From Bacteroidales bacterium (GTDB lineage Bacteria; Bacteroidota; Bacteroidia; Bacteroidales; DTU049): 47,104 bases of DNA. The notes beneath the pieces are model-generated. The model made no database searches and was not told where the DNA came from. It worked only from the letters and a program-made list of their open reading frames with translations. The stretch covers positions 1 to 47,104 of the forward strand of contig JAPXMM010000002.1 in NCBI GenBank assembly GCA_033809015.1, in the 5' to 3' direction. The position numbers were made by a program, and so were the translations under genes. Positions 13,749 through 37,660 of this stretch are shown piece by piece. How positions within the stretch are numbered: position 1 is the stretch's first letter; each line of letters begins with the position of its first letter.

Positions 13749-13860
13749 AAAAAAACCTTTTTACTAAACACAAACAAAAATTTAAGCTTAATGGCAAATA
13801 AATATTATTTTTGCAAAAGATAGAGTTTTTATATTTATAATTAGGATAAATTATTTTACT

Positions 13861-16849: not shown

Positions 16850-19725
16850 AATAAAAAAATAATTTCTGGATCGATAATATTGTTATTAATGAACTGCTTA
16901 TAATCTCTAATCTCTAATAATAAAGCATTGTCTACATCAGATAAATCTACTAAAAGCAAACTAGTGGGTATATTGACATCTGTATTCAATATTGTTTTAT
17001 AAATCATGAAATAATCACTAGGCTCTATTTTGCCACCAATGAAATATCGAGTCATTACGATTTCATTTTTCACTAAATCTATATATCCATCACGGCATTT
17101 TCTAATTTTGTAAGTTTCATTATTTGCTAATGTTTGCTGCATTATCCACTGATATGCTATATCTATAAATTTACTAAAAATTTTCTCAAAAGGCTTTTTA
17201 ATTTGCATTAATGGAGTTAAATTTTTAGGAAATTCAGGAACATATTCTTCTAATATTTTCAAAGAATTTACTGCAAAACCATTTTTTTTTATTTCTTGGA
17301 TATCGAAATAATGTATATTTACTTTGGCTTTATGATTTTGAGATATAATGTCATCTGCTAGATTTAATGTACCACTACGATACATATTTATCAGCTTTAA
17401 TTCATCTAATGAAAGGCTAAAATTATCTTTTACTTCTAAATCGAAAATATTTATAAAATGTTTTAGCTCAGAAGCCGATAATTTATAATCTGATTTTAAT
17501 TTTGATATATTGAGATCGCTGATAGCTATCACATTATCATCTGTATCATAAATCCAATGTTTAGTATATAAAATTTGCCAAATAGTAGAATGAAATACAG
17601 CCTCATCATTTCTAATATATGAAGACCAGCTATACTTGCCCCACCAGTAATCATCAGGGAATTGCAAAATCCAATGTAAAAGAAAATTACTTTTTTCTAA
17701 ATTAATATTTGACAAAAAATCTTCTATCCCTTCGATAGTCCAATCATCGATATTCTCCTCTACTATTGGCTTTACATCACTATTTCCTCGCAGATTAGCC
17801 TTTTCATCTTCATTCAAATGATTTTCTATTTTTATTTTCTTAGGAAATTTATTAATATTTAATTTTTCGAATATAGATATGAATTGAGATATAGGTAATT
17901 TATAATTATTTTCATACCATTTAAAATTCACAAAATTTTTATTATAAGAAAAATAATATTCCAATTCTTTAGTTGGTAGATACAACTCATTTGGTTTGCA
18001 CCACTCATTATTTATGTTAGGAATGCATTCGAAACTTTGTAATAATGTATTATCTACCTTATCTAAATTAGCTAAAAACAAATCCCAGAATTTACGATAA
18101 GCTTTTTTCAGAATATATGTAGTCAATTGATGATTAATACCTTTTTGATCATCATAAGGTTTTATTTGTAGAGAATAGAATAAATTAACAATATTTTCAT
18201 TGTTTATAAGTGCTGGATTAATATTCATAGCTGAATCTGGAGCTCCATAAAGGAAAACATTACTCATCTCCTCATCCCAGAGTTTCCATTTATTATCTGC
18301 AGTATATAACCACGGATAATCACTTAAATTATAAAATTTATTCTTATTATTTGGTAAAACTAACTCTGGATTTTGTGCTAAAAGTTCATAAAAAAATTCT
18401 GTCTGCTCAGAATTATAATTTTTATTAAAATATAATTGCTTCAATGCAAAAGCGAAATCATGCTCATCAATTATTCTAATTGATAATTCTTTTTTTATCA
18501 ATTCAGCAAAATTAGTTTTATCAATCAGCCCTATATTAATCCAATTTTTTTTGTTCCATAATTTATTTAAAACATTTTTAGGTATGAGCTCTAGCAACAA
18601 TTTATTTCTAGGGAAAGCAACAAGAGAATGAGGATAATATTTATTATCATTAGTTAAGATAGACTTATCATTTTTTAGAAAATTAATCCATTGCTCTGCC
18701 CATAATTTCTCAATAGGATGCTCATAGTGAGACAAAGTAAAAGCTTCGTATAAATCGGGAGTTAATAAATTTCTATTACGTAACTCTTTTAGAAAATTCG
18801 GAAATAATTTCTTAAGTTGATTCAGCAAAACTTTATTTTCATTAATAGATGAATTGTCCCATGGTATCTGCTCGCGAGTAGGTGTAGTCGTAAAAAAGCC
18901 ATGTACAATAAAAGGTAAATGCAATATTTCTCTAGTAGGGAAAAAAACGAAAAGTGGATTAGTAGCATACAACTTTTCTAATGAAAGAGCCAAAGATAAT
19001 TTTTTTTGATTATTATTAATTTTACTAAGGACCAAATACTTTTCATCAGCTATAGCATCTGACATATTAGTAGATAAAATTACGATTTTACTATCATCAG
19101 TATTAGTTTTTTCAATAAAAAATTTTTCGCGAGTTACATTATTAACAATTTCGATTTTATTTACATAGTCCAGAAAAAGAATAAATCTATAGTCCCAGGC
19201 TTTCACTCTATCCCATAAATCTATAACAGAAATATTTTTTTTAAAAGGAAACCAAAAAAATGTAGTAAAAGGCTCTAAAATATCAATCGGGTCAATAGTT
19301 TCTAATAATTCAAAATCTCGAATTACAAAATCATATCCATCAGAATGTATCTCGGGAGCATCAGTAATGCCAAAAACAGAACGAAAACCTATACCAAATT
19401 TACCTATTTTATTAATATTAGCCAAATGTTGTTTTGTAGATTTACCATATGTAGTAATAGCAATGAAATCATCATCATTGAAAGGATCACCATTATGATA
19501 AATAGCTATGCCATCATTATCAAATTGTATTTTCATTTTGCCCGGTCTGGTTATTCTAGCACAAGCATCCTCAGCATTTTGTACTATTTCATCCAAGAAA
19601 TGAACCGGATCAGCATATAGTGAAGATAAAATTTCTGCATAGCGATTGCCCTTATCTTTATTAGCCTTCACTACCTCTCGTGTCAAAGAAATATATTCCT
19701 GTAAATTATTGAATTTTTTTGGCAT
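16843..19725 (-). CDS. Large (960 aa) sacsin-like GHKL/Hsp90-type ATPase-domain protein, function unknown
   Basis: The N-terminus carries Bergerat-fold boxes: FLDEIVQNAEDA (N box), DNDGIAIYHNG (G1-like) and IGKFGIGFRSVF (G2). The following FFWFPFKKN block resembles sacsin repeat regions. Its stop overlaps the tilS ATG by 7 nt. Confidence 0.7.
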   Translation of the reverse strand: MPKKFNNLQEYISLTREVVKANKDKGNRYAEILSSLYADPVHFLDEIVQNAEDACARITRPGKMKIQFDNDGIAIYHNGDPFNDDDFIAITTYGKSTKQHLANINKIGKFGIGFRSVFGITDAPEIHSDGYDFVIRDFELLETIDPIDILEPFTTFFWFPFKKNISVIDLWDRVKAWDYRFILFLDYVNKIEIVNNVTREKFFIEKTNTDDSKIVILSTNMSDAIADEKYLVLSKINNNQKKLSLALSLEKLYATNPLFVFFPTREILHLPFIVHGFFTTTPTREQIPWDNSSINENKVLLNQLKKLFPNFLKELRNRNLLTPDLYEAFTLSHYEHPIEKLWAEQWINFLKNDKSILTNDNKYYPHSLVAFPRNKLLLELIPKNVLNKLWNKKNWINIGLIDKTNFAELIKKELSIRIIDEHDFAFALKQLYFNKNYNSEQTEFFYELLAQNPELVLPNNKNKFYNLSDYPWLYTADNKWKLWDEEMSNVFLYGAPDSAMNINPALINNENIVNLFYSLQIKPYDDQKGINHQLTTYILKKAYRKFWDLFLANLDKVDNTLLQSFECIPNINNEWCKPNELYLPTKELEYYFSYNKNFVNFKWYENNYKLPISQFISIFEKLNINKFPKKIKIENHLNEDEKANLRGNSDVKPIVEENIDDWTIEGIEDFLSNINLEKSNFLLHWILQFPDDYWWGKYSWSSYIRNDEAVFHSTIWQILYTKHWIYDTDDNVIAISDLNISKLKSDYKLSASELKHFINIFDLEVKDNFSLSLDELKLINMYRSGTLNLADDIISQNHKAKVNIHYFDIQEIKKNGFAVNSLKILEEYVPEFPKNLTPLMQIKKPFEKIFSKFIDIAYQWIMQQTLANNETYKIRKCRDGYIDLVKNEIVMTRYFIGGKIEPSDYFMIYKTILNTDVNIPTSLLLVDLSDVDNALLLEIRDYKQFINNNIIDPEIIFLLW

Positions 19726-19804
19726 TAAAAAAACTTTATCTTTAGCAAAATTAAGAAAAAAAGGTGTTGTAAAAAAGTTTCTGTATTAGGAGTTTTAAAA
19801 ATTG

Positions 19805-20015
19805 ATGGGAAGGAGAGGAGGAGACGTGGAGATGGGGAGAAAGGGTGAAATGGTGAAAGGGAGAAATGGAGAAGTTGATAAGTTGATAAGTTGATGAGTT
19901 TAAAGGTTTAAGCAGAATGTTTAAACTATATTAAACTACATTAAACTACATTAAATTATTTAATAAATCATAGTCCAACAGGCAGGTCATTTGATAATCA
20001 GTGGTTCAGACATTA
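19805..20015 (-). repeat. Modular intergenic repeat, copy B: left arm bracketing the island (inverted relative to copy C)
   Basis: The reverse complement reads AATGTCTGAACCACTGATT...GGACTATGATTT...TAGTTTAAACATTCTGCTTAAACCTTTAAACTCATCAACTT(ATCAACTT)n...C+T-rich tail. This is the same module order as 32682-33010. Confidence 0.8.
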
Positions 20016-20068
20016 TTTTCTATGAATGTTAATATAAAGATTACTTTTCAAAGTTTTTTATATGTTTA

Positions 20069-20099
20069 TTTGTAAATTTTAAATTTTAATGTAAATTTG
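20069..20099 (+). promoter_or_regulatory. Bacteroidota sigma-A-type promoter candidate (-33 TTTG / -7 TAAATTTG)
   Basis: TTTG at 20069-20072 lies 19 nt upstream of TAAATTTG at 20092-20099 (TAnnTTTG consensus). The ATG at 20123 is 23 nt downstream. Confidence 0.4.
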
Positions 20100-20122
20100 T
20101 GGGAAAATAGGATAAACAAATC

Positions 20123-20977
20123 ATGAAAAAATCTCTAACAATTATTATTTTTTTTATAATTACTTTGATTGCATTTGGGCAGAAACAAATAGGGAAAGAA
20201 ACTTCCGCAATTGTTGCCGAAGGAAAATTGCTTTATAAATCAGAAATGGCTTCGTGGTATGGCACAGACATTTTTCTTGACAAATACAAAGACAAAGCAG
20301 ACGATGTGGGAGGATATTTTTCATATCTCGAAAATAATATCGCAAAGTGTATTTTCTTTTCTAATGATGACAACCCAAAAGTAATTGCGACAATTACTTT
20401 TGACAGCACATACAATGTAAACATAGCTCAAATAGATGGTAATGAAAGAGAATTTACAACTTATGAAAATGATCTTTATACGATTCGTAAAAAAACATTA
20501 AAAGAAGTAAATAGCGATACTCTTATTAAAATGTACAAGAATACAAACATTAATTTGGTACCTCTTATAAATAATAACGAGAAGAAAGTTTATATTTTAA
20601 CTGTACCAGAAAATAATGGAATTGTCATTTTTGGCAATGATTATTTGTTTACTTTTGATAAAAACAATAATCTGGTAAGTAAGAAACAAATTCACAAAAA
20701 CATAATTGTGAATGAATATAGCAAAGGACAGGAAAGTGAGATAGAATTAAAGGAAGCTCTACACACTCATTTAGCATCAACAGGAAAATTCATTACCTCT
20801 ACCGACATTTGTACGCTAATGCTTTACGAGAATTTTGCAAAATGGGAAAAGTATTATGTGATTTCCGATGAATATGTATCAATTTGGAATTGCAAAACTA
20901 ACAAGCTTACTGTTATTACAAGAGAGGTTTGGGATAAAATGAATAAAGACCAAAAAGAGCGACACCTAGAAAAATAA
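20123..20977 (+). CDS. Secreted protein of unknown function, paralog A (pairs with 26867-27661)
   Basis: Sec signal peptide. Blocks shared with the 264-aa paralog: AEGKLLYKSE..W.GTD / AEADLMYKYE..WNSTD, GGY, FGNDYLF, and H....T..ITSTDICT / ITATDICT. Confidence 0.7.
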   Translation: MKKSLTIIIFFIITLIAFGQKQIGKETSAIVAEGKLLYKSEMASWYGTDIFLDKYKDKADDVGGYFSYLENNIAKCIFFSNDDNPKVIATITFDSTYNVNIAQIDGNEREFTTYENDLYTIRKKTLKEVNSDTLIKMYKNTNINLVPLINNNEKKVYILTVPENNGIVIFGNDYLFTFDKNNNLVSKKQIHKNIIVNEYSKGQESEIELKEALHTHLASTGKFITSTDICTLMLYENFAKWEKYYVISDEYVSIWNCKTNKLTVITREVWDKMNKDQKERHLEK

Positions 20978-21137
20978 GCAGACTAAAAGCAGCCGATAAC
21001 AGCATAAAACGGCAAGTGAGGATATATTTGACAAAGCATATACTAATTTTTGGTGTGGTTTGATAGTAAAGTGCTCTGAGATCCACCAGTACGCCAAGTT
21101 CAATACCACTATAGGTTATGAACTCCTAAAAATCGTA

Positions 21138-21262
21138 CAAAATATTTAAAATATCAAAAAAATGAATAATTTTTTAGATAAAATCATAATAAATATGTAT
21201 AATTTTGTTATGAGAATGGTTATAAAAATTAGTAAATATTTTAAAAAAATAAATACATCTTA
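21138..21262 (+). repeat. ~115-bp duplicate of the leader region found upstream of paralog B
   Basis: AATGAATAATTTTTTAGATAAAATCATAATAAATATG...GGTTATAAAAATTAGTAAATATTT matches 26748-26866 (AATGAGTAATTTTTTAGATAAAATCATAATAAGGTATG...GGTTATAAATAAAGTAGTAAATATTT). Confidence 0.6.
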
Positions 21263-21382
21263 AAAATGATAAAAAGTATAAAATATATTCGAAATTTGGT
21301 CGAGCTTATACGCTTTTTGTGCTATTAAGGTGCGATTATAAACAAATTATAAAACATTGACAACAACAAAAACAACAAAATT

Positions 21383-22351
21383 ATGAATATACCAGTAGAA
21401 TATCAAGACCTTTCAGGGACAATTACCAATCAAACTTACAACTTGACACGAATTGCTTTTGCAAAACATTTAGCAATTGCAGGACAAGGTTATGCTCCAA
21501 AACCACATAAATTTATACGGACACTTTCAATGTTTTTTCATTACATCTATTACATACAAAGACAATCATTTAACAGCGATAAATTTTCGGAACCTCTTAT
21601 GATACTTTCTGACCCAACTGAAAAAGGACAATTTTCAAATCTAGCAGGTAAAGCAATAGCTGACTTTCTATCCAAGAAAATAGACCAAAGCTTATTTACT
21701 GTAAACTATGAAGGTGCAATGAAATCACTGAATATAAAAGTTAAAGGAGGACGACCTGACTTACTTGCATTCAAAAAGGATTCTATGTTTGCTATTGAAG
21801 CAAAAGGGTTTTCGGGTGGAGCAGGTAATATGACACAACACATGAATCAATCTCAAACAGGTAAAATTCCAGTTAATTTTTCTGTTGCTTGTGTTTCTTA
21901 CAAACTATACAAAAATGTTAAATGTAAATATCACAAAATATGTAATAACAATGTGTCTTATAACAACGGACTTTTAAGAAAACTTACTCAACAATATTAT
22001 GGTGGATTTTTGGGATTTTTAAACGAAACATATTTCAACTATAGAGAAATAGAAATTCAAAGCGAAAAATTTTATGAAGTTGAGTTATCGCATGAATCTT
22101 TTAAAAAATTGTTCCCTGAAAAATTTACCTTCATATCTTTGGATCCCTTGGAAATTTTTAAGTATTACCTACCTAAATTAATTCTTCCACTTAAAATAAG
22201 AGATTATGCAAAAGATGGTATTACAAGTGAAACTGAACCATTTATTTTTGAGACGAATACAGAAAATAACTTATTATATGTAGACAATGACAGAATTGGT
22301 TTAAAAATTGAATCTACTCCGAAAAGTAAATATTTAAAATTAAAAATTTAA
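21383..22351 (+). CDS. Hypothetical protein with a PD-(D/E)xK nuclease-like motif
   Basis: GGRPDLLAFKKDSMFAIEAKGF fits PD...x14...E-A-K spacing, preceded by a possible helix-acidic element (LSDPTEKGQFSNLAGKAIADFL). I recognise nothing else in the protein. Confidence 0.5.
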   Translation: MNIPVEYQDLSGTITNQTYNLTRIAFAKHLAIAGQGYAPKPHKFIRTLSMFFHYIYYIQRQSFNSDKFSEPLMILSDPTEKGQFSNLAGKAIADFLSKKIDQSLFTVNYEGAMKSLNIKVKGGRPDLLAFKKDSMFAIEAKGFSGGAGNMTQHMNQSQTGKIPVNFSVACVSYKLYKNVKCKYHKICNNNVSYNNGLLRKLTQQYYGGFLGFLNETYFNYREIEIQSEKFYEVELSHESFKKLFPEKFTFISLDPLEIFKYYLPKLILPLKIRDYAKDGITSETEPFIFETNTENNLLYVDNDRIGLKIESTPKSKYLKLKI

Positions 22352-22380
22352 TTAAAAATAATCAAAAAATTAATTATAAT

Positions 22381-22414
22381 TTTGCTTAGAAAAAAAATTT
22401 TTGATGTAAATTTG
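22381..22414 (+). promoter_or_regulatory. Promoter candidate for the 22490-25936 operon
   Basis: TTTG (22381-22384), a 22-nt spacer containing an A8T5 run, then TAAATTTG (22407-22414). The -7 box and flank (ATGTAAATTTG) are identical to the one at 20089-20099. Confidence 0.35.
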
Positions 22415-22489
22415 CAAAAAGATATTATTTGTATATTTATGGTGATGGCGACCACCTTAAGCGGAGCCAAAACAATTAATTAAAAAAAT

Positions 22490-23848
22490 ATGTACAACGA
22501 ACAGTTAGAAAAATTGATTGAAATGGCTCTTATAGATGGAGATCTAACAGAAAAAGAAAAGCAAATTCTTTTCAAAAAGGCAGAGGAACTTGGGGTTGAC
22601 CTTGATGAATTTGAAATGGTACTTGAAGCAAAATTGTTTGAAAAACAGCAAGGCAATAAATCAGATACGTCTACACCTGAATCTGTTAAAATTGGTGATG
22701 TAAAAAAATGCCCAAGATGTAAAGAACCTATACCTGCTTTGAGTAATGTATGTCCTGCTTGTGGTTATGTTTTAAATACAGAATCATCGGTTTCCGATAG
22801 TCAATCATTAGAAGCTTTGATTGAAAATATTGAAAATGACATTATTGAAATAAAATCGTTTCCAAAACCGACTGTAATTTCAACATTAATAAAACAACTG
22901 CCAATCATCTTAATTTTAATTGGTGTAATACTTTTTATAATAGCTACAAAATTTAGCATTATTTATTTGAAATATATACTAATGATTGTTGGCGGTGCTT
23001 GTGTTATAGGTGCTTTTTTTATTTTTAAAAATAAATATATTAAAGAAAAAAGAGAACGAGAATTGAAGGAAAATGGGATTTTTATTACAGAAAAGAATGA
23101 TTCCTCTCTTGAGAAACTAAAAGCAGACTTTGAAAAAAATAGCAGAACTGCCAAAATATTCTATGGTGAAAATAAGAAAGTTTCTAATCTTATTGATGAG
23201 TTCAAGAAAGAAATTCAAGATATTGAGAAGAAACGAAAAAAATTAATGTTTCAAAATTGGATTGTGTATGGAATTATTTGTTTGATAGCCGCTAGTATAT
23301 TATTTATTCCAAAGCAAAAATCTAACTATGAACTTATGATAGAAGAAATACAAGAAAAATTAGCTGAACTAAAAACTAAGGAATATATTATTGATGGAGG
23401 AAAATTTAAAACAACAGGGAATTTCGGTAGTTTGTATCAAATAACCTCTACCAAAGTAGTTGTAAATATAGATTATAAAATATATTATGACGCAAGAGGT
23501 TACTTTTTGTCGATTCAGGGGATAAAGCTAACTCTAAATCCAAACAATAAACTAAAATTAAAGAAAGAAATTACGAAAATAAAAGAAGGATGCCCTTATT
23601 CTAATGAAACCCATTGCGGTAAACTTACTTCGGCACTAATTTTGGAAGATGAAAACAATAATTCAGTTGGAATAAAGAGTCTTGAGTTGTTGAATGGCGA
23701 TGATCCAGATAACAAAGCTCTTTTTTATTCAGAATCAGAAGAAGTTCTATTGTCTTTTAAAGGAGGACCTTACACAAAACAAGATATAGATAAGTTGTCA
23801 AATGTAAAAAATTTCACAATTTCTATAATAATTGCAAAAGAATATTAA
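22490..23848 (+). CDS. Membrane protein: TerB-like N-terminal helices, Zn ribbon, 2 TM, coiled coil, a third TM, and an unknown ~190-aa C-terminal domain
   Basis: LIEMALIDGDLTEKEKQILFKKAEELGVDLDEFEMVLE (TerB/DjlA-N-like); CPRCKEPIPALSNVCPACG; hydrophobic stretches LPIILILIGVILFIIA, ILMIVGGACVIGAFFIF and WIVYGIICLIAASILFI; K/E-rich segment 180-245. Confidence 0.7.
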   Translation: MYNEQLEKLIEMALIDGDLTEKEKQILFKKAEELGVDLDEFEMVLEAKLFEKQQGNKSDTSTPESVKIGDVKKCPRCKEPIPALSNVCPACGYVLNTESSVSDSQSLEALIENIENDIIEIKSFPKPTVISTLIKQLPIILILIGVILFIIATKFSIIYLKYILMIVGGACVIGAFFIFKNKYIKEKRERELKENGIFITEKNDSSLEKLKADFEKNSRTAKIFYGENKKVSNLIDEFKKEIQDIEKKRKKLMFQNWIVYGIICLIAASILFIPKQKSNYELMIEEIQEKLAELKTKEYIIDGGKFKTTGNFGSLYQITSTKVVVNIDYKIYYDARGYFLSIQGIKLTLNPNNKLKLKKEITKIKEGCPYSNETHCGKLTSALILEDENNNSVGIKSLELLNGDDPDNKALFYSESEEVLLSFKGGPYTKQDIDKLSNVKNFTISIIIAKEY

Positions 23849-23852
23849 AAAT

Positions 23853-25199
23853 ATGGGGTTATTCGGGAATAAATCAGAAGGCGGATTAATTGACGTAATC
23901 CGTTGTGACGAACAAGAATATCTTGTTTGGAAATGGCGACCATCTGGTGAAGCAAACACAACAAAAAAAGAAAATTCAATACGCTACGGTAGTAGTTTGC
24001 GAGTTAAAGACGGAGAATTAGCCGTTTTTATGTATCAACAAAAAGACGAGTTGATTCAAGATTACATTTTGGGTCCCTATGATGATACAATAAAAACTGC
24101 GAACTTTCCTGTACTAACCAGCATTGTTGGTGCTGCTTTTGGTGGTGCTTCTCCATTTCAGGCAGAAATCTACTTTATTAATTTATCGGGCAATGTTCAG
24201 ATTAAGTTTGGAGTCCCTTACTTTGATGTATTTGACCCAAGATTTTTAGATTTTGCTGTGCCTATGGTAGCAAGAGGTACAATTACTTTTAATATTACAG
24301 ATTATAAAAGATTTATTAAACTCAATAGACTTATCAACTTTGATATAGAAGATTTTAATAATCAAATTAGAGATGCTGTTACAAGATATATTAAAGGTGT
24401 AATAACAAATATCCCAGCTGACAAAGGAATACCAGTTCTTCAAATGGAACGAAAACTTTTTGAAATTAATGAAATTGTTGCTGCTTACCTCAAACCAATA
24501 CTTGAAAATGATTTTGGTGTAAATATGAAAAGACTTGATCTTGCTGCTATTGAAGTTGATAAAGAAAGTGAGGGTTATGCAGAGTTAAGAAAAGTAACAG
24601 CCGAGCAAACAACAAAAACCATACTAGCCCAAGCTGATGTTAATATAAAGAATATGGAAGACATGCAAAATATTAATGCACAAAATATGGATGAAACATT
24701 GCGTATTCAAAGAGAAGAATCACAGAGGGCACAGAAACTTCAAACCGAAACCAACTTTATCGGCACTCATGCACTCAATCAACAAACAGAGGTTCTTAAA
24801 ACAGGAGCTGAAAGTTTAGGAAATATGGGTAACATGGACATGGGCGAAGGCGGAGGAATGAACCCCGCTGGATTGATTACAGGAATGATGATGGGAGGTG
24901 CAATGGGTAATCAAATGGCTGGTATGATGAACCAAATTGGACAAAATATGAATCAACCCCTAAACTCACCACCTCCACCTCCACAAATCCAATATAGTGT
25001 TTCAGTAAACGGTCAAACAGCAGGTCCATTTAATTGGCAACAACTACAGCAAATGGTACAAAATGGACAACTGACAAAAAATACTTATGTTTGGAAACAA
25101 GGCATGGCAGGTTGGGAATTAGCAGGTAATGTACAAGAACTTGCAAATTTGTTTGAAGCAGTTCCGCCACCCCCACCTCCGCCACCACCAGATGTTTAA
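23853..25199 (+). CDS. SPFH/Band-7 protein of the YdjI (PF13421) type with an M/G/N/Q-rich linker, C-terminal GYF_2 domain and polyproline tail
   Basis: MGLFGNKSEGGLIDVIRCDEQEYLVWKWRP...GASPFQAEIYFIN...ARGTITFNI matches the remembered Band_7_1 pattern. YSVSVNGQTAGPFNWQQLQQMVQNGQLTKNTYVWKQGMAGWELAGNV is the GYF_2 (DUF4339) pattern. The protein ends in P9. I prefer the ATG at 23853 (4 nt after the upstream stop) over the track's TTG at 23832. Confidence 0.85.
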   Translation: MGLFGNKSEGGLIDVIRCDEQEYLVWKWRPSGEANTTKKENSIRYGSSLRVKDGELAVFMYQQKDELIQDYILGPYDDTIKTANFPVLTSIVGAAFGGASPFQAEIYFINLSGNVQIKFGVPYFDVFDPRFLDFAVPMVARGTITFNITDYKRFIKLNRLINFDIEDFNNQIRDAVTRYIKGVITNIPADKGIPVLQMERKLFEINEIVAAYLKPILENDFGVNMKRLDLAAIEVDKESEGYAELRKVTAEQTTKTILAQADVNIKNMEDMQNINAQNMDETLRIQREESQRAQKLQTETNFIGTHALNQQTEVLKTGAESLGNMGNMDMGEGGGMNPAGLITGMMMGGAMGNQMAGMMNQIGQNMNQPLNSPPPPPQIQYSVSVNGQTAGPFNWQQLQQMVQNGQLTKNTYVWKQGMAGWELAGNVQELANLFEAVPPPPPPPPPDV

Positions 25200-25234
25200 T
25201 CCTCAAAATGTTTAATCCGTAAAAATATAACCAT

Positions 25235-25588
25235 ATGAATGAAGATAGTTTTTTTTCAATAAACAGATTAGTTGAATTCGGGATTAGCTTGGCAGTTGCT
25301 CAACAAATGGTACAAACTATGAATCAAGCAATGACAAATATGCAAGTTCCTGGAGCAATGAACTCAATGCAATCAGCCCCACAACAATTTTATTATGCAA
25401 TAATTGAAGGTAAACAAGCCGGCCCATTTTCTGAGCAAGAATTATCTAGATTAATTGCAGAGAAAAAAGTTGTTAAAGAAACGTACATTTGGAAACCAGG
25501 TTTAGCAAATTGGGAAATTGCAGAAAAATTGCCAGAAGTTTTAAAATTGGTTGCTTTAGCTCCACCACCATTTCAACAAAATCAATAG
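25235..25588 (+). CDS. Small GYF_2-domain protein (stand-alone copy of the tail of the preceding SPFH protein)
   Basis: YYAIIEGKQAGPFSEQELSRLIAEKKVVKETYIWKPGLANWEIAEKLPEV, preceded by a Q/M/N-rich segment and ending in APPPFQQNQ. Confidence 0.75.
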   Translation: MNEDSFFSINRLVEFGISLAVAQQMVQTMNQAMTNMQVPGAMNSMQSAPQQFYYAIIEGKQAGPFSEQELSRLIAEKKVVKETYIWKPGLANWEIAEKLPEVLKLVALAPPPFQQNQ

Positions 25589-25591
25589 ATT

Positions 25592-25936
25592 ATGAAAATA
25601 AATTTAGTACAAACTATTATAGCCATAGCGATAAGTTTACTCATCGCTTATGCCTTGTATAATTTTCACGATAGTGAAAACAAAATACTTTTGGGTGCAG
25701 GTAGTTTTGTGTTTATTGCAGTAACATTAATATTTACTTTCGGAATAAGTTTTGAGAAATCAAGAGCAACAACAAATATCAGGGTTGTTTCCGGGATTTT
25801 CTTTGCTATTGCGTTGATAAGCAACTTGATTTTCACCTTTATTCAATTTTCAATTCCAATCTATGTAATAACCAATGGAATTTTGTTGTTAGTTTTTATT
25901 TTGATTGCATACTCATTAAATAAAGCAAAACAATGA
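25592..25936 (+). CDS. Small integral membrane protein (about 4 TM)
   Basis: Four hydrophobic stretches in 114 aa. The start lies 3 nt after the upstream stop. Confidence 0.7.
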   Translation: MKINLVQTIIAIAISLLIAYALYNFHDSENKILLGAGSFVFIAVTLIFTFGISFEKSRATTNIRVVSGIFFAIALISNLIFTFIQFSIPIYVITNGILLLVFILIAYSLNKAKQ

Positions 25937-26340
25937 ATTTAAGAATTATCAAATGCATTTTGTGAATGAATTTGTTACTACGTTTACATATTCCAATATC
26001 CAAAAAAATGAAAGTATCTTTTATATAGTCAGTGGAAGATGAATTTTTTGGTAAATGAGACTAAAAATGACAAATATAAATAAATTAGAAAGATTCTTAA
26101 GTCAATAAACTAAATCAAACATTTCATTCCGATGAAACTTATGTTTAGCTTGATAGGAAATCATCAGAAATCCACTACTGAACATATACTAGATTGGTAT
26201 TACCAACCGTATAAACAAAATGCTCCAGAGATAGTGATATAATAATTTGTTTAGATAGCTGACAATTTGGCAGATTAATTATAGTGGCATATTATTCGCT
26301 AAACAATTGTATAAATGACATTAAGAAATAATATTTACAA

Positions 26341-26718
26341 ATGAAGAATTACTACAAAATTTTGGAAGTAAAACCTACCGCAACAAAAGAAGAAATCAAA
26401 AAAATGTATCGTAAATTAGCGTTTAAATTTCATCCTGACAAAAACCCTAATAATAAGGAAGCCGAAGAAATATTTAAGGAAATAAACGAAGCTAATGAAA
26501 ATCTTACTGATGACACCAAACGAGCAAAGCACGACTATGACTTACAACAGGAAAGAGTAAGACAGGAATCGGAAAGGAGAGCTAAAATGCAGCAAGAATT
26601 CATAGAAAAAATAATAATAGTTGCTGCTGTTATTATTGCCATTGTTGGCGTTGTTTCACTTATTGCAGCTAACAACGTAAATAATGGAACTAGTGCATTA
26701 AAAAAATTAATCCCATGA
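26341..26718 (+). CDS. Tail-anchored J-domain (DnaJ-like) protein
   Basis: [33 protein letters not shown] carries the HPD motif. A charged linker is followed by the C-terminal [22 protein letters not shown]. Confidence 0.85.
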
Positions 26719-26747
26719 ATAATTTTACTTCACCAAACAATCTTTAC

Positions 26748-26866
26748 AAAATGTTTGAAATATTAAACAATGAGTAATTTTTTAGATAAAATCATAATAA
26801 GGTATGAATAAATTTAATTTAGGTACGGTTATAAATAAAGTAGTAAATATTTAAAAAGACACAAAT
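26748..26866 (+). repeat. Leader repeat (partner of 21138-21262), directly upstream of paralog B
   Basis: See 21138-21262. This copy ends at the ATG of 26867. Confidence 0.6.
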
Positions 26867-27661
26867 ATGAAACGGATTACAATTTTATTTTTTTTAGGAA
26901 CACTTTTTCTGAATGTATTCTCTCAAGATGAGAATATACAGTTAAAATTTGATTCAATAATTGCAGAAGCAGATTTAATGTATAAATATGAAAAGACCGT
27001 TTGGAATTCTACAGATTTATTAATGGCTAACAAAAATTTAAAAAAGAATTATGGTGGTTATATTGTTAGACATTCAGCTGATTCAATTTTTGTAACACAC
27101 TTAGACAAAAATCAGAAAGAAAGTATTGCTAGATTCGTATATATTTCTACAAATTTTAATGAGCCTTACCAAGTAAGAATAGAATCTTCACCTTTGTCTG
27201 TCACAGAAAAAGAATTATTTGACATTAAAGTTAAAATGATTAATCAACTTTCTGACAGCAAATATAATGTGACAATACCACCAGGATTTAATCCTAACTT
27301 TGTTTTAATGAAAAATGATACAATATTTAAACTTTATATTATAATGGGGACATCAGAAGCCGGAGTGATACCTTTTGGAAATGATTATTTGTTTATAGCA
27401 AATTCAAAAGGAGATATTGTAGATTGGACTAAATTCCATTCTCGTATTATACCGACAATGGCTAAATATGAAGGAAAAAAAGTAACAAAATCTTCGCATT
27501 CTCATTTGCGGACTACTCCATATATTACAGCAACAGACATTTGTACTTTTAGACTTTATGCACAATACACAGGGCTGGAAGAATTCTCAGTATATTCACC
27601 TGCACTAGGAAAAACGATGACCTATAATTTGAAAACAAATAAAATTGAAATAGAAGAATAA
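26867..27661 (+). CDS. Secreted protein of unknown function, paralog B
   Basis: Signal peptide. It shares the FGNDYLF, TATDICTF and other blocks with 20123-20977. Confidence 0.7.
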   Translation: MKRITILFFLGTLFLNVFSQDENIQLKFDSIIAEADLMYKYEKTVWNSTDLLMANKNLKKNYGGYIVRHSADSIFVTHLDKNQKESIARFVYISTNFNEPYQVRIESSPLSVTEKELFDIKVKMINQLSDSKYNVTIPPGFNPNFVLMKNDTIFKLYIIMGTSEAGVIPFGNDYLFIANSKGDIVDWTKFHSRIIPTMAKYEGKKVTKSSHSHLRTTPYITATDICTFRLYAQYTGLEEFSVYSPALGKTMTYNLKTNKIEIEE

Positions 27662-28020
27662 AAAAAGCTAACAAAGGCTATGTGCAATAAGGGTTTTAGT
27701 GGCTATTTAAGCATTATAGTTCGATCAAAAATTTTTGTAATAATAGAAAAACTCCAAAAGTTGTATAAACATTTTCAAATCTGAATATAACTTTATTCAC
27801 TCCTAAAGTTTAAAAAATTTTAGGAGTTATGAATAATGCCATCATTGTTACAAAAAAGTACGAAATGATAGTCGGGCATTATTGATATTTTATTTAGATA
27901 CATATCGATAACAGCTATGTATATGAAACGTACTAGTTTGAGAGGCTTAGTCTCTACCCACAATAGTAAAAAACGTGAGGCTGAAAGAAATACTTGATTA
28001 GCCAATGAAACCGCTACGTT

Positions 28021-28602
28021 TTATACCGATTGTTGTGAGTTAATGCTTTTTCTTAATTCTTTAGGTAAAAACATATCAATTTCTTCATCGCTAAAGGTTA
28101 ACTCTTCTTTAGATTTCAAAGACTTACTTGCTTTATCATATGCACCACTAGTCGAACGTGGAGCTCCTTGATAAATATTATGCAATTTGCTTTGCAACTC
28201 ATCCCTTTTCTGTATTATTTCATCAATAGTTATTGCATTTGCCTTTATATCAGTCAATAAAGAAAGATATGTTTCTCTAATATTCCAAAGATTTGATGCA
28301 CAATCAACGTGCTTTTGTGCAATTTGACCTAAATCATAATTTTTTAAATATGTATTTAAAGACAAAAGGATAGTTGAAATTAGTGCTGTAATAATCCCGA
28401 CCCATTTCTGATCACCAAAAACACTAACCATAATTCCAGTTGTGGTAATTGCTGATAGAACAATTTGTAAAATTTTAATCTTATTATTTCTACGATTTAA
28501 AATATCAGCACACTTTTCTTGAGTCTTATGTGACCAAGCAACACGTCCAAAGCATTCTCTTATCTGAGATTCTATGATGCTAATTTGGGAATTTTGTTCC
28601 AT
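28021..28602 (-). CDS. SLATT-domain 2TM effector-like protein
   Basis: An N-terminal helix (IRECFGRVAWSHKTQEKCADIL...) is followed by two adjacent TM helices (ILQIVLSAITTTGIMVSVF / WVGIITALISTILLSLNTYL) and a helical C-terminal region ending in TFSDEEIDMFLP. This is the remembered SLATT layout. I chose the start at 28602 (MEQNSQ), which has GGAGAG 7 nt upstream and gives a 23-nt overlap with the upstream gene. Confidence 0.7.
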   Translation of the reverse strand: MEQNSQISIIESQIRECFGRVAWSHKTQEKCADILNRRNNKIKILQIVLSAITTTGIMVSVFGDQKWVGIITALISTILLSLNTYLKNYDLGQIAQKHVDCASNLWNIRETYLSLLTDIKANAITIDEIIQKRDELQSKLHNIYQGAPRSTSGAYDKASKSLKSKEELTFSDEEIDMFLPKELRKSINSQQSV

Positions 28603-29461
28603 ATATTTCTCTCCATTTCTTTTTTGCTTCAACAGACGCATTGTTTTGGTTTTCAATTGCTTCTAAAGAAATATTATAACATCTGTTAGCTTTATATTCA
28701 AACGAACCTTTTCGATTAACTGATTGATTGCTTCCTAGTGCATGCCAATATCTTTGTGCTGTATTCTGTTCTGATAAATATTTAAAAAAATCCCGTGACA
28801 TCCAATCATAATAAAATGTAGATTTATCTTTATGCTCGTAATTTTCCAAGAAATTATAAACCAATGTGTCTATTAATAAGCCTCCCATTGGAACATCCCA
28901 TTTATATTTCCAAGCTCTTGCCATTCGACATAAAGCCTTCATATTTCCTTTAGTTGCATTATTTCTGTCATTAACAGCTTTTATTTCGAGGCGGGGGTCT
29001 GTTTTTTTCCAACTACCTCCATTATTTGTGTCAGGAAATGTAAAACTACCATCAGTATTCTCAAAACATGGTACAAGTTCAAAATTTATATCGTCATTAA
29101 AAAGTATTTGAATTACTTGACCGTCAGCTTTAAGATATGTTTTTGAGTAAGTTTTTTCGATTGATTGTTTTACTGCCTGTAATAACGCAGATTGTCCATT
29201 ATTTAGATGTTTGTCATATTGCAATTTAAGTCTAGATGGCAACATGAAAATCCAATCTATATCACTTGTTACAATATCAGTGTCCCTGCCGTATGAACCA
29301 ACATATAAACTATTTCTAGTCTCACTATTAATATTCCAAAAATCAAGATTTAATTGTTTGGTCATTCGATTGTATCTGCATCTAATCTTATCAACTTTGT
29401 CCTTTTCTATTTTTAGATTATCAACAAAGCTTTGAAATGTTTTTTCTACATTTAATACCAT
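28580..29461 (-). CDS. SMODS-type nucleotidyltransferase (CD-NTase-like second-messenger synthase candidate)
   Basis: Pol-beta NTase signature GSYGRDTDIVTSDIDWIF (GS...DxD) and a third acidic position in INFELVPC. The downstream W..TDP...........G....L.R.AK.WK pattern is typical of SMODS. Confidence 0.8.
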   Translation of the reverse strand: MVLNVEKTFQSFVDNLKIEKDKVDKIRCRYNRMTKQLNLDFWNINSETRNSLYVGSYGRDTDIVTSDIDWIFMLPSRLKLQYDKHLNNGQSALLQAVKQSIEKTYSKTYLKADGQVIQILFNDDINFELVPCFENTDGSFTFPDTNNGGSWKKTDPRLEIKAVNDRNNATKGNMKALCRMARAWKYKWDVPMGGLLIDTLVYNFLENYEHKDKSTFYYDWMSRDFFKYLSEQNTAQRYWHALGSNQSVNRKGSFEYKANRCYNISLEAIENQNNASVEAKKKWREIYGTKFPN

Positions 29462-29606
29462 GGTTTATATTCTTTTTTTTAGCAAGACGTCCAAAACGTC
29501 TTATTTACTCAACAAAAATACAACATTATATATATATAAAAAATTATTTTATTATCTAAATATAATAAATACCAAATACAAAATTTAAAATTTGTCCATA
29601 ATTTTT

Positions 29607-30140
29607 TTAAGGTGCCACATAAATAGGATATGTTGTGGCTGTAAATATTGTTCCATCAGTTTCTTTATAATCAATAGTAAAAGATTGCAAACAATTTGTG
29701 TCAGTTGGTGCTGACAGAAATATGTAAATGTATGAATTACAACGTGGATGAGAAAAATTTATAAAACTTAAATTATTTGAAAGTACTTCACCATTATAAT
29801 AACTTATTTTAAACTTTATAATATCGTTGATAGTATCTACTAATGTATCATTACCAATAAAATAATTTGCTATTACATTTAAATACTCTATGTTCCCGAC
29901 TACAGAGTCATTATAAGTACCGCATGGAGGCCATTCTCCTATATGTTTTGTGTCGAACCTAAGTGTTATTTGAAGGCTATCATATTTGCAAGTATCGTTT
30001 ATATTATAATTAATATAGTTACTCAATGATGTTGTTTCGCTTGGCCATGTGCAGTATTTATTTCCAATAGGTTTACAAGAATTTGTAAAAATAATAAATA
30101 TTAAACCTAAAATTAATAAAATAAAACATTTTATTTTCAT
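29607..30140 (-). CDS. Lipoprotein, unknown function
   Basis: Signal peptide plus lipobox (IFTNSCK). Cys-rich, with no recognisable motif. Confidence 0.6.
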   Translation of the reverse strand: MKIKCFILLILGLIFIIFTNSCKPIGNKYCTWPSETTSLSNYINYNINDTCKYDSLQITLRFDTKHIGEWPPCGTYNDSVVGNIEYLNVIANYFIGNDTLVDTINDIIKFKISYYNGEVLSNNLSFINFSHPRCNSYIYIFLSAPTDTNCLQSFTIDYKETDGTIFTATTYPIYVAP

Positions 30141-30160
30141 ATCACCACCTTGATTTTTTA

Positions 30161-31774
30161 CTATTTTCCTATAATTGAAATTTTTTGCTTGTACATTTTA
30201 TCACCAGCTTTAACACTGATAAAATATATCCCTTCTGGCTGATTTCTCATTTGAACGGTTATCTCGACATCACTGTTTTGAGAATAAGTAAATACTTTTT
30301 GCCCCAAGCTGTTGTATATTTCAATGTATTTATTTGTTTGGTCCAATGCATTATTAAATTTTATTTTAAATGTACCAGAAGATGGATTGGGAAAAACAGA
30401 AAATGCATTATCAGAAGTTAGTTGTTCAATTTGTCCAACGATATCAACGCATCCACTTTTTTCAAAAATATCCACATTCGAAATGACTGGATTAAAATAT
30501 TCAACGTTCCAAGTTGAACTTTCTGTAAAAGGAATGCTCACCAAATCTATCGTAACAGATGTTGAATTGATATTTTCTCCTCCTAAGCTACAATCTATAG
30601 AATTTCCAAGTGAATCTGCTTTTATAATTCCTATCTGTGAGGGAATGTAATATTTAGTAACGAGCAATGGTCCACTTCCAATTATAAACAGACCACTATC
30701 ACTAGTAAATGTAAAATCAGAAAGCATTAGTAAATAACTAAAGCTATTTGCTATATTTCCAGACGAATCAATTTTTAAAATATAATTATTTATATCATAA
30801 TTACTTATAACTGATAAATAATAATCTTTGTAAGAACTTTCTTTAAACTTCCCGATAAGATTAACAAAATTGTTTTCAAAATAAGAATCAGCATCAAATT
30901 GATAGCTTTTTACAATATTTCCCGAAAAATCTGTTTTCAAAATTGTTGTTTTGTCATCATATGAAGTGTAGAATAATAATCCGTCGTTTAAGATAAGAAT
31001 ATCGCCACCATAGCTCTTTGAGCCAGTGTTATCCTTTTTTAACCAATCTATATTCCCAATTGAGTCTGTTTTAAGAATTATAAACTTTTGTTTAATATGA
31101 ATTGAATCAATAAGCTCATTTATACATCCAATGGCAACAAATTCACTATCTGAAATTTGTTTAATACTCGAAAGTGCAGAAGAAACTCCTGCTGAAATTG
31201 TTTTTGTCCATTTAGTATTCCCAATAGAATCAATATTTACAATTAACATTTCAAAATGTGGATAATTAAAAAAGTTTAAATAATAATTACCATCATAATT
31301 AGTTTGATATGTATCAGTAGTAGTAAATCCCGATAATATAAAACCTTTTTCATTGGTTTGTTGAATACTTAAAGCATAATCGTTTTTACCGACATTAATC
31401 TCTTTTGTCCATAGCGTGTCACCTGAAGAATTGATTTTAACGCAAAAAATATTGGTCATAGAATCGTAAGGATTAAATAAATCGCCTGCAAAAACATAGC
31501 ACGAATCGCTTGTTACTGTAGCACAATAAAAGTCTCCCTCGTTACCATAAGTTTTGCTCCATAAAAGATTTCCATTGTCATCCAATTTAGTAATCATGGG
31601 TAAAGAGTCAAAATCGCCTCCGACAAGGAAACCGTTGTCAAGAGTATTAATAACGACATGCCCATTTATTGGAAAATAATTATCGTACAAAACCTTGGAA
31701 TACAAATTTTGTGAAGTTAATTTTGTTGCTGCTAAAATTGTAAGACATGCTAATATAATAAACGTTTTTTGCAT
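30161..31774 (-). CDS. T9SS-secreted repeat protein (beta-propeller-like repeats plus Por_Secre_tail C-terminal domain)
   Basis: Seven or more copies of a D..GN..W.K motif (DDNGNLLWSK, NSSGDTLWTK, DSIGNTKWTK, DSIGNIDWLK...). The C-terminal FSVFPNPSSGTFKI...IEIYNSLGQKV...EGIYFISV is the T9SS sorting-domain pattern. Confidence 0.8.
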   Translation of the reverse strand: MQKTFIILACLTILAATKLTSQNLYSKVLYDNYFPINGHVVINTLDNGFLVGGDFDSLPMITKLDDNGNLLWSKTYGNEGDFYCATVTSDSCYVFAGDLFNPYDSMTNIFCVKINSSGDTLWTKEINVGKNDYALSIQQTNEKGFILSGFTTTDTYQTNYDGNYYLNFFNYPHFEMLIVNIDSIGNTKWTKTISAGVSSALSSIKQISDSEFVAIGCINELIDSIHIKQKFIILKTDSIGNIDWLKKDNTGSKSYGGDILILNDGLLFYTSYDDKTTILKTDFSGNIVKSYQFDADSYFENNFVNLIGKFKESSYKDYYLSVISNYDINNYILKIDSSGNIANSFSYLLMLSDFTFTSDSGLFIIGSGPLLVTKYYIPSQIGIIKADSLGNSIDCSLGGENINSTSVTIDLVSIPFTESSTWNVEYFNPVISNVDIFEKSGCVDIVGQIEQLTSDNAFSVFPNPSSGTFKIKFNNALDQTNKYIEIYNSLGQKVFTYSQNSDVEITVQMRNQPEGIYFISVKAGDKMYKQKISIIGK

Positions 31775-31980
31775 AATTGGTTTATTTTAAATTTCAAGAC
31801 CAAATTTACGGAATTTATTTTATTATGCAGAAAATATTGTTAAATTTATTTAAATTTTAATTAACTACGTCGATATAATGCAAAATAATCATTAATATTT
31901 AAGAGTAGTGTCTATGATTGCAACTTGGTTTTACTCCAAAAATTTCCCAATTCATTTTTTGATATTATTTTGTCTGTTGT

Positions 31981-32541
31981 TTATTTTATTTGAAATGAAG
32001 TTGATTGAAGTTTTCCGTTTTCAAAAATAAAATATCTACTAAATTTGTAATCTCTTTTGAAGATTTGATCAGATAGTATATCTTTTTTAAAAAGCGTGGA
32101 ATATCTATTACAATATCTTGTTTTATAGTATTTTTCATTTATACTGAACATCGGATATTGTTTTAGTTTTGATTTATCAACCTTCAACTTTTCAATGTCG
32201 TAGTACTCTGATATTAGAAAAAAAGCAAAACCATTTTTTTCACAAAATTCTTGCACCAAATCTACAGAATAACAATATTCAGATTGGCAATTGGGCGACC
32301 AAATATACACTAATGATTTTGGTTCTTTTAAAATACAATTTCTCAATTGAGTACCATTAATTGCATATATTTTACCATCATTTTGCAAGTTGCAAATATC
32401 AAAGTCCGGTTCAGTAAAAACGATATTGTTTTTTTCTTGTTCAGGTAGCTCAGAATAACCACTATAAAATCCTGGTATTGTGGTAATAATGCAACTTGAA
32501 AAAAAGATCACTATAATAATATATACAATATTCTTACTCAT
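31981..32541 (-). CDS. Lipoprotein, possibly a degenerate thioredoxin-like fold
   Basis: Lipobox FFSSC. LVYIWSPNCQSEYC loosely recalls the WxxWCxxC position of TlpA-like proteins. The call is weak. Confidence 0.45.
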   Translation of the reverse strand: MSKNIVYIIIVIFFSSCIITTIPGFYSGYSELPEQEKNNIVFTEPDFDICNLQNDGKIYAINGTQLRNCILKEPKSLVYIWSPNCQSEYCYSVDLVQEFCEKNGFAFFLISEYYDIEKLKVDKSKLKQYPMFSINEKYYKTRYCNRYSTLFKKDILSDQIFKRDYKFSRYFIFENGKLQSTSFQIK

Positions 32542-32681
32542 ATTTTTTTATTTTTTTCAAAATTATATAATTTTGATATATATATAAAAAAAAGCAATAA
32601 TATAACTGCTTTTGAAATGATTTGTAATATTTTTTGTTGTTGACTTTGGTACGACCTATCGGACTACTCAGCCACAACTAT

Positions 32682-33010
32682 TAATGTCTGAACCACTGAT
32701 TTCCAGATGACTTGTAGTGAGCATAACCGAACTATTCGCCTGATAGACTATGATTTCAAGGATATTAGTTTAATTTAGTTATTTGTGGGCATTCGTGTTC
32801 ATTTGTGGAAAATTATTTTAAGTTTAACATAGTTTAAACATCTTGCTTAAAACCTAAAACTTCTAAACTTCTCAACTTCTAAACTCATCAACTTCTAAAC
32901 TCATCAACTTCTCCCTATCACCCCATCACCCCAGTCTCCTCCTCTCCCTTTCTCCTCGTCTCCCTTTCTCCTCGTCACCTCGTTACCCAGTCTCCCCCGT
33001 CTCCTCGTCA
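32682..33010 (+). repeat. Modular intergenic repeat, copy C: right arm bracketing the island (most complete copy)
   Basis: TAATGTCTGAACCACTGATT..GACTATGATTT..ATTTGTGGGCATTCGTGTTCATTTGTGG..TAGTTTAAACATCTTGCTTAAAACC..(CTTCTAAACTCATCAA)2..C+T-rich tail CTCCCTATCACCCCATCACCCCAGTCTCCTCCTCTCCC...CGTCTCCTCGTC. Confidence 0.8.
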
Positions 33011-37469: not shown

Positions 37470-37660
37470 TTATAAAATAGGTAAGTTTAATGTAGTTATT
37501 TGTGGAAATTTGTGTGCATTTGTGTAAGATAAATAATAATCCACAGATAGACACAAATTAGCACAGATGAGATAGTTTATATTTGCGTTCATTTGTAGAA
37601 AATAATTTTTATTTTAACATTGTTTAACATTATTTAAACATTTTGCTTAAATTTGTAAAA
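37470..37660 (+). repeat. Modular intergenic repeat, copy F (AT-rich modules only)
   Basis: ATTTGTGGAAATTTGTGTGCATTTGTG...CCACAGATAGACACAAATTAGCACAGATG...CATTTGTAG...ATTATTTAAACATTTTGCTTAAA. The ATTTGTGG and TTTAAACATyTTGCTTAAA modules are shared with 32780-32850. Confidence 0.6.

Follow-up and report, generated by a model that had tools for sequence, protein, structure and literature searches.

The subject of this report is a 12.7-kb accessory island in a 47,104-nt stretch of contig JAPXMM010000002.1 from a Bacteroidales bacterium (the whole stretch that was analyzed is called the window below), together with the two inverted copies of a modular intergenic repeat, the arms, that stand at its ends. 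The island is best explained as a strain-variable accessory and defense island at one chromosomal hot spot, between a block of three genes (aspT, tilS and a gene for a 960-aa ATPase) and rsmI, in a clade of uncultured Bacteroidales from anaerobic digesters. Recombination hot-spot islands are a known kind of locus; what is new here is the undescribed mosaic repeat at its borders. We favor, with moderate confidence, the view that the locus is turned over by homologous recombination in which the repeats, along with promoter and leader sequences, serve as crossover sites. The first-pass annotation of the window had offered three explanations for the bracketed island, namely mobilization as a composite element or a pair of miniature inverted-repeat transposable elements (MITEs), inversion between the two repeat copies, and a repeat acting as a recombination hot spot with changing cargo, and it is the last of these that fits best. 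The main parts of the locus are the following:

13753-19796, block B (aspT, tilS and the 960-aa ATPase gene), inverted in the lineage of the window
19805-20015, plus strand, left arm (R2), from repeat search and gapped alignment
20016-32681, accessory island of 12,666 nt, its left half transcribed rightward and its right half leftward
32682-33010, minus strand, right arm (R3), from repeat search and gapped alignment

The locus was compared with more than 30 related contigs, comprising metagenome-assembled genomes (MAGs) of uncultured Bacteroidales and Rikenellaceae and contigs from digester metagenomes, and lineages were defined by the nucleotide identity of block B. Lineage W holds the window, L013, L014 and L015, which are 100% identical to one another in this block; lineages G1 and G2 are 89-92% identical in it to W and to each other. 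Lineage D (L017/L043, L018 and L020) stands at about 91% to W in block B, with aspT at 91-92% to the window, while L019 is at 82% in aspT and L045 is an outgroup at 61% amino-acid identity. The empty site pictured by the first-pass annotation does exist in four of these relatives (L017/L043, L018, L020 and L019), sister genomes with 81-92% identity in their flanking genes, where the aspT-tilS-ATPase block lies next to rsmI with a single repeat copy in between: aspT is followed by one repeat, made of a TTTAAACAT core, words and a C/T tail, and then by rsmI. There is no island at these sites, and the 20-mer that forms the inner end of each arm in the window is absent even at up to four mismatches. 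Compared with the empty site, an island-bearing contig carries in addition the left arm in full, the island, and those modules of the right arm that lie on its inner side; the outer portion of that arm (core, words and tail) was resident already. Comparison with the empty sites revealed no duplicated target sequence where the insertion begins and ends.

The second line of evidence is a step in sequence identity at the borders of the island. Among W, G1 and G2 the island is 99.5-100% identical despite flanks that differ by about 10%, and from 19920 inward the left arm reaches the same 99.5-100% between lineages that share about 90% identity in the flanking block. Between G1 and G2 the step, from about 91% up to 100%, lies about 45 nt beyond the outer end of the left tail; between the window and L070, L071 and L073 the identity falls from 99.8% to about 92% near 32985, inside the right tail. 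The same flanking genes are thus found with alternative contents, the empty state among them, and the identity of the island lies far above that of its flanks, with the caveat that these are metagenome assemblies. Contigs from many samples and assemblers, more than 20 in number, show the island at this single locus and in a single orientation relative to both arms. Base composition is silent on the matter. The GC content is 0.292 inside the island and 0.293 and 0.274 outside, so the idea of a foreign composition was dropped; the comparison of island and flanks proposed by the first-pass annotation finds them indistinguishable and is uninformative here, because the exchange partners are sister lineages.

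The third line of evidence is the turnover of cargo within the island, in which there are 13 open reading frames (ORFs) of at least 70 aa, rather than the 15 first counted. They fall into three segments, the last of which holds a cyclase and effector pair as well as a protein with a sorting signal for the type IX secretion system (T9SS):

20110-22331, plus strand, cassette 1, with two orphan ORFs (20123-20977 and 21383-22351)
22332-26870, plus strand, conserved island core: a zinc-ribbon protein, an SPFH/Band_7 plus GYF protein, a small GYF protein, a 114-aa ORF and a DnaJ-domain protein (Pfam)
26871-32541, variable right half: a 264-aa orphan ORF, a type I CBASS, a 177-aa orphan, a T9SS-sorted 537-aa protein and a 186-aa orphan
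28021-28656, 2TM/SLATT_4 effector (Pfam SLATT_4, 5e-71; PADLOC 2TM effector, 2.8e-83)
28580-29461, SMODS cyclase (Pfam SMODS, 2e-46; PADLOC cyclase, 1.8e-129)

The SMODS cyclase beside the 2TM effector is, as judged from these matches, a predicted type I cyclic-oligonucleotide-based antiphage signaling system (CBASS). Most of the other cargo, including the SPFH/GYF operon, the DnaJ protein, the T9SS protein and the orphan ORFs, has no match in the PADLOC defense library. In L013 and L056 the stretch 20110-22331 is replaced by another first cassette, a pair of a ThsB-type TIR protein and SLATT_1 (at 5760-6612 of L013), and the left boundary of cassette 1 falls just past a conserved promoter, TAAATTTGTGGGAAAATA, at 20109. 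The island core that follows is 99.7-99.96% identical in L013, L016 and L056, up to the ATG at 26867-26869, past which the sequence differs wholly in all three and the variable right half is replaced; the same right half is present at 99.8% in L070-L076. Upstream of the ATG lies a 130-nt leader of which the island has two direct copies, 80% identical (21128-21255 and 26735-26870), each of them the leader of a different island gene. Read from left to right against the window, L013 is a mosaic, with block A at 89-90%, 13330-19827 at 100%, the arm at 95%, cassette 1 replaced, 22332-26870 at 99.7% and the remainder replaced.

The two arms share their architecture in detail. The 20-mer AATCAGTGGTTCAGACATTA, or M20, lies at 19996-20015 on the plus strand and its exact reverse complement at 32682-32701, and these are the only two matches in the window at up to three mismatches (none in 100 shuffles), so the exact inverted pair reported in the first pass stands. 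In an ungapped repeat search the arms appear as two inverted repeats, one of 110 nt at 74% identity (19828-19937 and 32821-32930) and an inner one of 33 nt at 88% (19983-20015 and 32682-32714). A gapped alignment bears out the earlier claim that the modules follow in the same order on both sides. From the outer to the inner end these are a G/A-rich tail with an 8-nt period, AAGTTGAT-type words of 8 or 16 nt, a core TTAAGCARRATGTTTAAAC centered on the palindrome ATGTTTAAACAT, 10-nt words ATTAAACTAC, the module AAATCATAGTC and the 20-mer. A TTTGTGG module is present in the right arm only and absent from the left. Each arm thus turns a fuzzy 8-nt-period tail toward the promoter of a core gene and a sharp 20-mer toward the cargo, and the arms cease to be homologous exactly after ...GACATTA. 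The modules are:

19805-19871, left arm, G/A-rich tail with 8-nt period
19872-19900, left arm, AAGTTGAT words
19908-19926, left arm, core TTAAGCAGAATGTTTAAAC
19921-19955, left arm, ATTAAACTAC 10-nt words
19965-19995, left arm, inner module AAATCATAGTC
19996-20015, left arm, terminal 20-mer (M20)
32682-32701, right arm, M20
up to about 32757, right arm, inner module with GACTATGATTT
32767-32813, right arm, TTTGTGG module
32832-32850, right arm, core GTTTAAACATCTTGCTTAA
32857-32912, right arm, 16-nt words
32913-33010, right arm, C/T-rich tail of 8-nt units

The inner arms of the window fold no better than shuffled sequences (z = +1.5 and +0.2), and Rfam gave nothing at the gathering score in the window and nothing at E <= 1 in either arm. 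For all four genes that flank the two arms, a TAnnTTTG motif of the Bacteroidetes type lies 24-31 nt upstream of the start codon and outside the arm. Since the flanking genes have these motifs of their own outside the arms, the arms fill the space between divergent promoters, and the possibility that they supply the -7 motifs of the four adjacent genes was ruled out. It is worth pointing out that a G+C-richer segment at 32620-32681 (GACTTTGGTACGACCTATCGGACTACTCAGCCACAAC) adjoins the right 20-mer; it is kept in L016 with several substitutions that look paired, and it has no Rfam match.

The arms do not belong to the island alone. Each is a separate copy of an intergenic repeat that is dispersed, built of modules and contains minisatellites; this repeat is found at five sites of the window in all, both arms included. 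The other three are:

13618-13751, minus strand, repeat copy R1, with a TTTAAAACA-type core, words and C/T tail and without M20, from the repeat search; oriented like the right arm and inverted relative to R2
37484-37650, minus strand, partial copy, with the TTTGTGG module, TTTAACATTA words and a core AAGCAAAATGTTTAAA
40350-40420, plus strand, partial copy, the G/A-rich 8-nt tail only

Full or partial copies occur at other loci in related MAGs as well (L022, L025, L030, L035 and L036), some of them, among those in L030, L022/L025 and L035/L036, adjoining metK or a gene for a PUA-domain methyltransferase. Modules can be missing, repeated or reversed between copies. The copy number of the tandem words varies: the 16-nt array of the right arm has roughly three, six or nine units depending on the strain, and the left arm of other lineages carries about four more of the 10-nt words. 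All copies are strictly intergenic and built from shared modules, and many are partial. Exact-pattern scans find one or two copies per related MAG, the MAGs being fragmented. The view of the repeat as a bracket specific to the island hence falls to the dispersal of the family, whereas the 20-mer did prove not to be a ubiquitous intergenic word, with two copies in 47 kb and few in the relatives. Literature searches with 12-mers taken from the 20-mer returned unrelated primer matches only, and the best reading is that the mosaic family is undescribed and resembles the BrickBuilt or BIME elements discussed below. A second locus shows a similar layout. Between L025 and L022 the tail side of the repeat, next to the methyltransferase gene, is 93% identical, and on the M20 side a cassette has been replaced and the adjoining segment is 99.9% identical. 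In all four arms that have M20, a small sample, the tail points toward a core gene and M20 toward orphan genes. Assemblies of this clade tend to break at the repeats; L009, L012 and L016 are among the contigs that end in or near one, and in the DTU049 scaffold L025 a run of N lies within a second repeat copy (195-431).

Recombination between copies of the repeat has left its clearest trace next to the island. Block B is inverted in W relative to G1, G2, D, L019 and the outgroup L045, by which the ancestral orientation was set. The breakpoint intervals, 13610-13704 and 19796-19920, lie within R1 and R2, to within 10 nt at their outer limits, and the two copies are hybrids: in R1 the A-side of the repeat of the relatives is joined to the tail that the G-lineage arm has on its aspT side, and R2 combines the reciprocal parts. 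Both breakpoints therefore lie in inverted copies of one repeat that became hybrid in the event, and block B was flipped in W by recombination between R1 and R2. The orientation of the block tracks the sequence lineage perfectly, and an assembly flip can therefore be set aside. Of the inversion proposed in the first-pass annotation, then, the mechanism holds for this neighboring 6-kb block between R1 and R2; the island itself was never found inverted.

Taken together, the comparisons suggest a history in which the island would have been gained as imported DNA through homologous recombination, without transposing by itself, and would have swept between sister lineages that are about 90% identical and co-occur. 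It would then have been remodeled one cassette at a time, with crossovers in or beside the repeats and in conserved promoter and leader sequences, and an exchange between R1 and R2 would have inverted block B. The presence or absence of the island, the steps in identity, the swapped cassettes, the inversion with its hybrid repeats and the dispersal of the repeat are all observed directly, whereas we infer that the exchanges were homologous and that they preferred the repeats, as well as the route by which the DNA was imported. Several points weigh against this history. All the comparison data are metagenome or MAG contigs, in which chimeric joins at repeats could exaggerate the identity breaks; the same joins recur in more than 10 independent samples and with several assemblers, however, and chimeras are therefore unlikely. 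Identity breaks so near the ends of both arms would also be expected of a discrete mobile unit. The empty site lacks the left arm, which must therefore have come with the island or later, and simple recombination through flanking homology leaves the origin of this arm unexplained.

The rival that survives best holds that the repeats are incidental: the locus would be an ordinary hot spot that relies on homology in the flanking core genes and in promoters, the repeats would merely build up in long intergenic DNA that tolerates them, and block B would have undergone one chance inversion. Several breakpoints do lie outside the repeat (at about 13330, 20109, 22332 and 26870), as does the identity break between G1 and G2, about 45 nt beyond the arm, and the family also occurs at sites without known variation, such as 40350-40420, where the one other contig recovered, L069, has the same genes on both sides. 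What makes this reading unlikely in our judgment is that both inversion breakpoints and the right-hand identity break fall inside repeat copies, that the L025/L022 locus also pairs a 20-mer terminus with a variable, high-identity segment, and that the orientation of tail toward core gene and 20-mer toward orphan genes holds in four arms out of four.

A different question is raised by the 20-mer, which is found well beyond this clade. Its exact sequence was found in 11 genome and 21 metagenome records; about one would be expected by chance in the genome collection under a uniform model. A few of the matches are chance ones in coding sequence, for example in MurC (...QISGSDIK...). The others are intergenic and come from Parcubacteria/Paceibacterota, Ignavibacteria, Cytophagia, Chitinophagia, Saprospiria-like and unassigned contigs. 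Contigs of the candidate-phyla type that carry 20-mer elements are L001, L006, L048, L051, L054, L059, L060, L065 and L066, and further contigs with the 20-mer are L002, L003, L005, L007, L011, L050, L052, L055, L061, L063 and L068. The intergenic 20-mers are preceded by AATCAGTG-type words at a spacing of 9-10 nt, and at no fewer than nine loci a second copy stands inverted 80-235 nt upstream, the ...GAC ends of the two pointing away from each other. In the candidate phyla the elements are hairpins of 110-130 nt (z = -5.3), strong hairpins being formed only by paired 20-mers, and the last bases of the 20-mer, ...ACATT, run directly into the ATG of unrelated genes. Rfam gave no match at E <= 1 for the Parcubacteria/Paceibacterota elements, and a 17-mer scan of viral contigs gave two matches, which is the level of chance. 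Other loci of this kind were noted along the way. In L063, an unrelated metagenome contig of higher GC, a 150-nt element bounded by the 20-mer lies at 6600-6750, and at 8130-8300 the 20-mer is joined to a CACCATTC tail with an 8-nt period, an architecture like that of the window arms. In L010 (1-5723), from an uncultured Bacteroidetes, arrays with periods of 53, 58, 65 and 90 nt and 3.4-4.5 copies stand between most genes, with AATCANNGGTTCAGACA in every unit.

The perfect identity of the two 20-mers in the window thus reflects conservation across a whole family, and not a function specific to the island. In the window the ...GAC ends of the pair face each other, and the two are therefore the termini of two separate elements; the idea that the island had split a single small element, leaving them as its two ends, was ruled out on the same ground, the orientation being the reverse of the canonical pairs. 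It is conceivable, though we regard it as rather doubtful, that AATCAGTGGTTCAGACATTA is the terminus of an undescribed, cross-phylum family of small non-autonomous elements, which may mark and perhaps create junctions with foreign cassettes, the inward-facing pair being a footprint of cargo capture. The canonical form would be a hairpin of 80-230 nt with outward inverted termini and AATCAGTG-type words, flush with start codons in the candidate phyla, and in this clade and at least one unrelated organism (L063) the 20-mer would have become fused with minisatellite tails of 8-nt period. This terminus, shared across phyla, is the one odd loose end of the locus.

Less probable still is the composite element of the first-pass annotation, in which arm, island and arm would form a non-autonomous MITE pair moved in trans by a transposase encoded elsewhere. 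A shared unit of 99.5-100% identity that ends within about 50 nt of both outer arm ends is what such an element would leave, and the 20-mer does act like the terminal inverted repeat of small elements elsewhere. We nevertheless consider it improbable. The sharp 20-mer termini point inward, opposite to every canonical pair, and the outer ends are fuzzy, variable tandem arrays; at the empty site the right arm already has its core, words and tail; the insertion boundaries lack a target duplication; the element is seen at one locus only in more than 20 contigs; and the segments of the island have different histories. There is no transposase in the island, and the IS1595-like ORF nearby lacks 20-mer-like ends. 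That ORF was tried as the mobilizing transposase and set aside, being syntenic in relatives down to 66% amino-acid identity. Two further candidates were also rejected. A core site for a tyrosine recombinase, formed by abutting the 20-mers (GGTTCAGACA-TTATAA-TGTCTGAACC), has island-side half-sites that match, by eye, at only 6 of 10 and 3 of 10 positions, and was dropped also because integration would yield direct full sites and not inverted half-sites. An empty site produced by deletion between the palindromic ATGTTTAAACAT cores was ruled out since the empty sites have no left G/A tail. Finally, that the island is an invertible segment flipping between its arms like a phase-variation switch is highly improbable, for although the arms are inverted repeats (110 nt at 74% and 33 nt at 88%) and the neighboring block did invert between copies of the same repeat, the island has one orientation in more than 20 contigs from many samples, no invertase gene lies nearby and the perfect match is just 20 nt.

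Among described repeats and loci there are several points of likeness, drawn from the descriptions of those families. By this analogy, the closest counterpart of the repeat appears to be BrickBuilt, a minisatellite MITE of Porphyromonas gingivalis with one 23-nt array (PMC4596501), with the BIME/REP mosaics next. Like the window repeat, BrickBuilt has a Bacteroidales host, is dispersed and always intergenic, lies between genes near promoters, and combines a tandem minisatellite of variable copy number with leader and tail segments that have small inverted ends, many copies being partial. The window repeat differs in having several successive arrays of 8-, 10- and 16-nt units, in ending on one side with a 20-mer conserved across phyla, and in that two of its copies border a 12.7-kb island. 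The BIMEs, REPs and REPINs of Enterobacteria and Pseudomonas (PMC2817692, PMC3733652) are likewise mosaics in which a conserved short motif, placed either way round, is combined with further small ones; they are intergenic, form inverted doublets able to fold into hairpins, and are known sites of recombination and rearrangement. Unlike these, the window has no RAYT or TnpA-REP-like ORF and no GTAG or CGTC tag, its 20-mer is itself no palindrome, its repeat contains long 8-nt-period purine or pyrimidine arrays, and its copy number is apparently low.

As a locus, the island is similar to the minimal mobile elements and Correia-bordered regions of Neisseria (PMC3082526, PMC2649163), in which alternative whole-gene cassettes occupy the space between the same conserved genes, with no mobility genes, with homologous recombination and with small repeats at the borders. 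The host of the window, however, is not known as naturally transformable, the repeat family is unrelated, and the island is of greater size and is itself pieced together from several cassettes. The SMODS cyclase with its 2TM SLATT effector, the alternative allele with ThsB-TIR and SLATT (Thoeris-like), and the differences between close strains all recall defense islands, for which hot spots are a general concept; most of the cargo here is unlike these in having no match in the defense library, and there is no integrase or tRNA anchor. The concept of the minimal mobile element was reportedly put forward by Saunders and Snyder in 2002. For the 20-mer elements, the nearest likeness is perhaps to short tandem intergenic words, of which the STRR heptamers of cyanobacteria are an example. 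MacGregor (PMC4679880) described arrays of a TAACTGA heptamer, across phyla and before start codons, with a suspected role in gene rearrangement. Both types share with the 20-mer elements the short tandem words, often just upstream of start codons, in distant phyla without an evident mechanism of transfer. The difference from TAACTGA is that the AATCAGTG-type words stand at a spacing of 8-10 nt and end in a fixed 20-mer, often within a long hairpin formed with an inverted partner.

The neighborhood of the island contains a few features that deserve mention in their own right:

9552-10559, IS1595-type DDE ORF with an InsA zinc ribbon, 8-10 kb left of the island, syntenic in relatives
10682-11578, XerC/D-type recombinase gene, likewise 8-10 kb left of the island and syntenic in relatives
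13861-15531, plus strand, aspT, a permease of the aspartate-alanine-exchanger type
15497-16849, minus strand, tilS
16843-19725, minus strand, 960-aa SACS/TmtA-like ATPase (PADLOC TmtA (Tiamat), 2.8e-38)

The housekeeping flanks described in the first pass are correct for rsmI on the right; on the left it is the gene for the 960-aa sacsin/HATPase protein that touches the arm, and tilS is not adjacent to it. Similarly, the absence of mobility genes holds for the island, where Pfam and PADLOC scans found no transposase or recombinase, and the window is without tRNA, yet the XerC/D-type and IS1595-type genes do lie 8-10 kb to the left. The IS1595-like ORF is 93% and 66% identical in amino-acid sequence in relatives and has no detectable terminal repeats; it may be a domesticated transposase. 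The ATPase gene overlaps the essential tilS by 7 nt, and the pairing is kept down to a relative at 61% amino-acid identity, which makes this coupling of a defense-like ATPase to a housekeeping gene an odd but stable one. Farther to the right, a 105-aa ORF lies in a 777-nt tandem duplication (98% identical) at 42257-43333, and the segments 42168-43569 and 44480-45220 hold a family of small genes with near-identical upstream regions (repeat families D1, D3, D4, D7 and D9). A megablast search with arm, island and arm against plasmid and phage collections gave no match.

The locus is a clean natural case of a defense and accessory island that has been swept across lineages about 10% diverged in their flanks, and one in which the remodeling of a single island, cassette by cassette, can also be followed. 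Small mosaic repeats mark the edges of the exchanged blocks and mediate an inversion of essential genes. The repeat family is new to Rfam and to the literature as searched by sequence, and different phyla have its most conserved module in common. If that 20-mer module does not act as the functional end of a mobile or recombinogenic element, the locus would be a well-documented yet ordinary hot-spot island; if it does, the repeats would point to a so far unnoticed route by which accessory regions are assembled.

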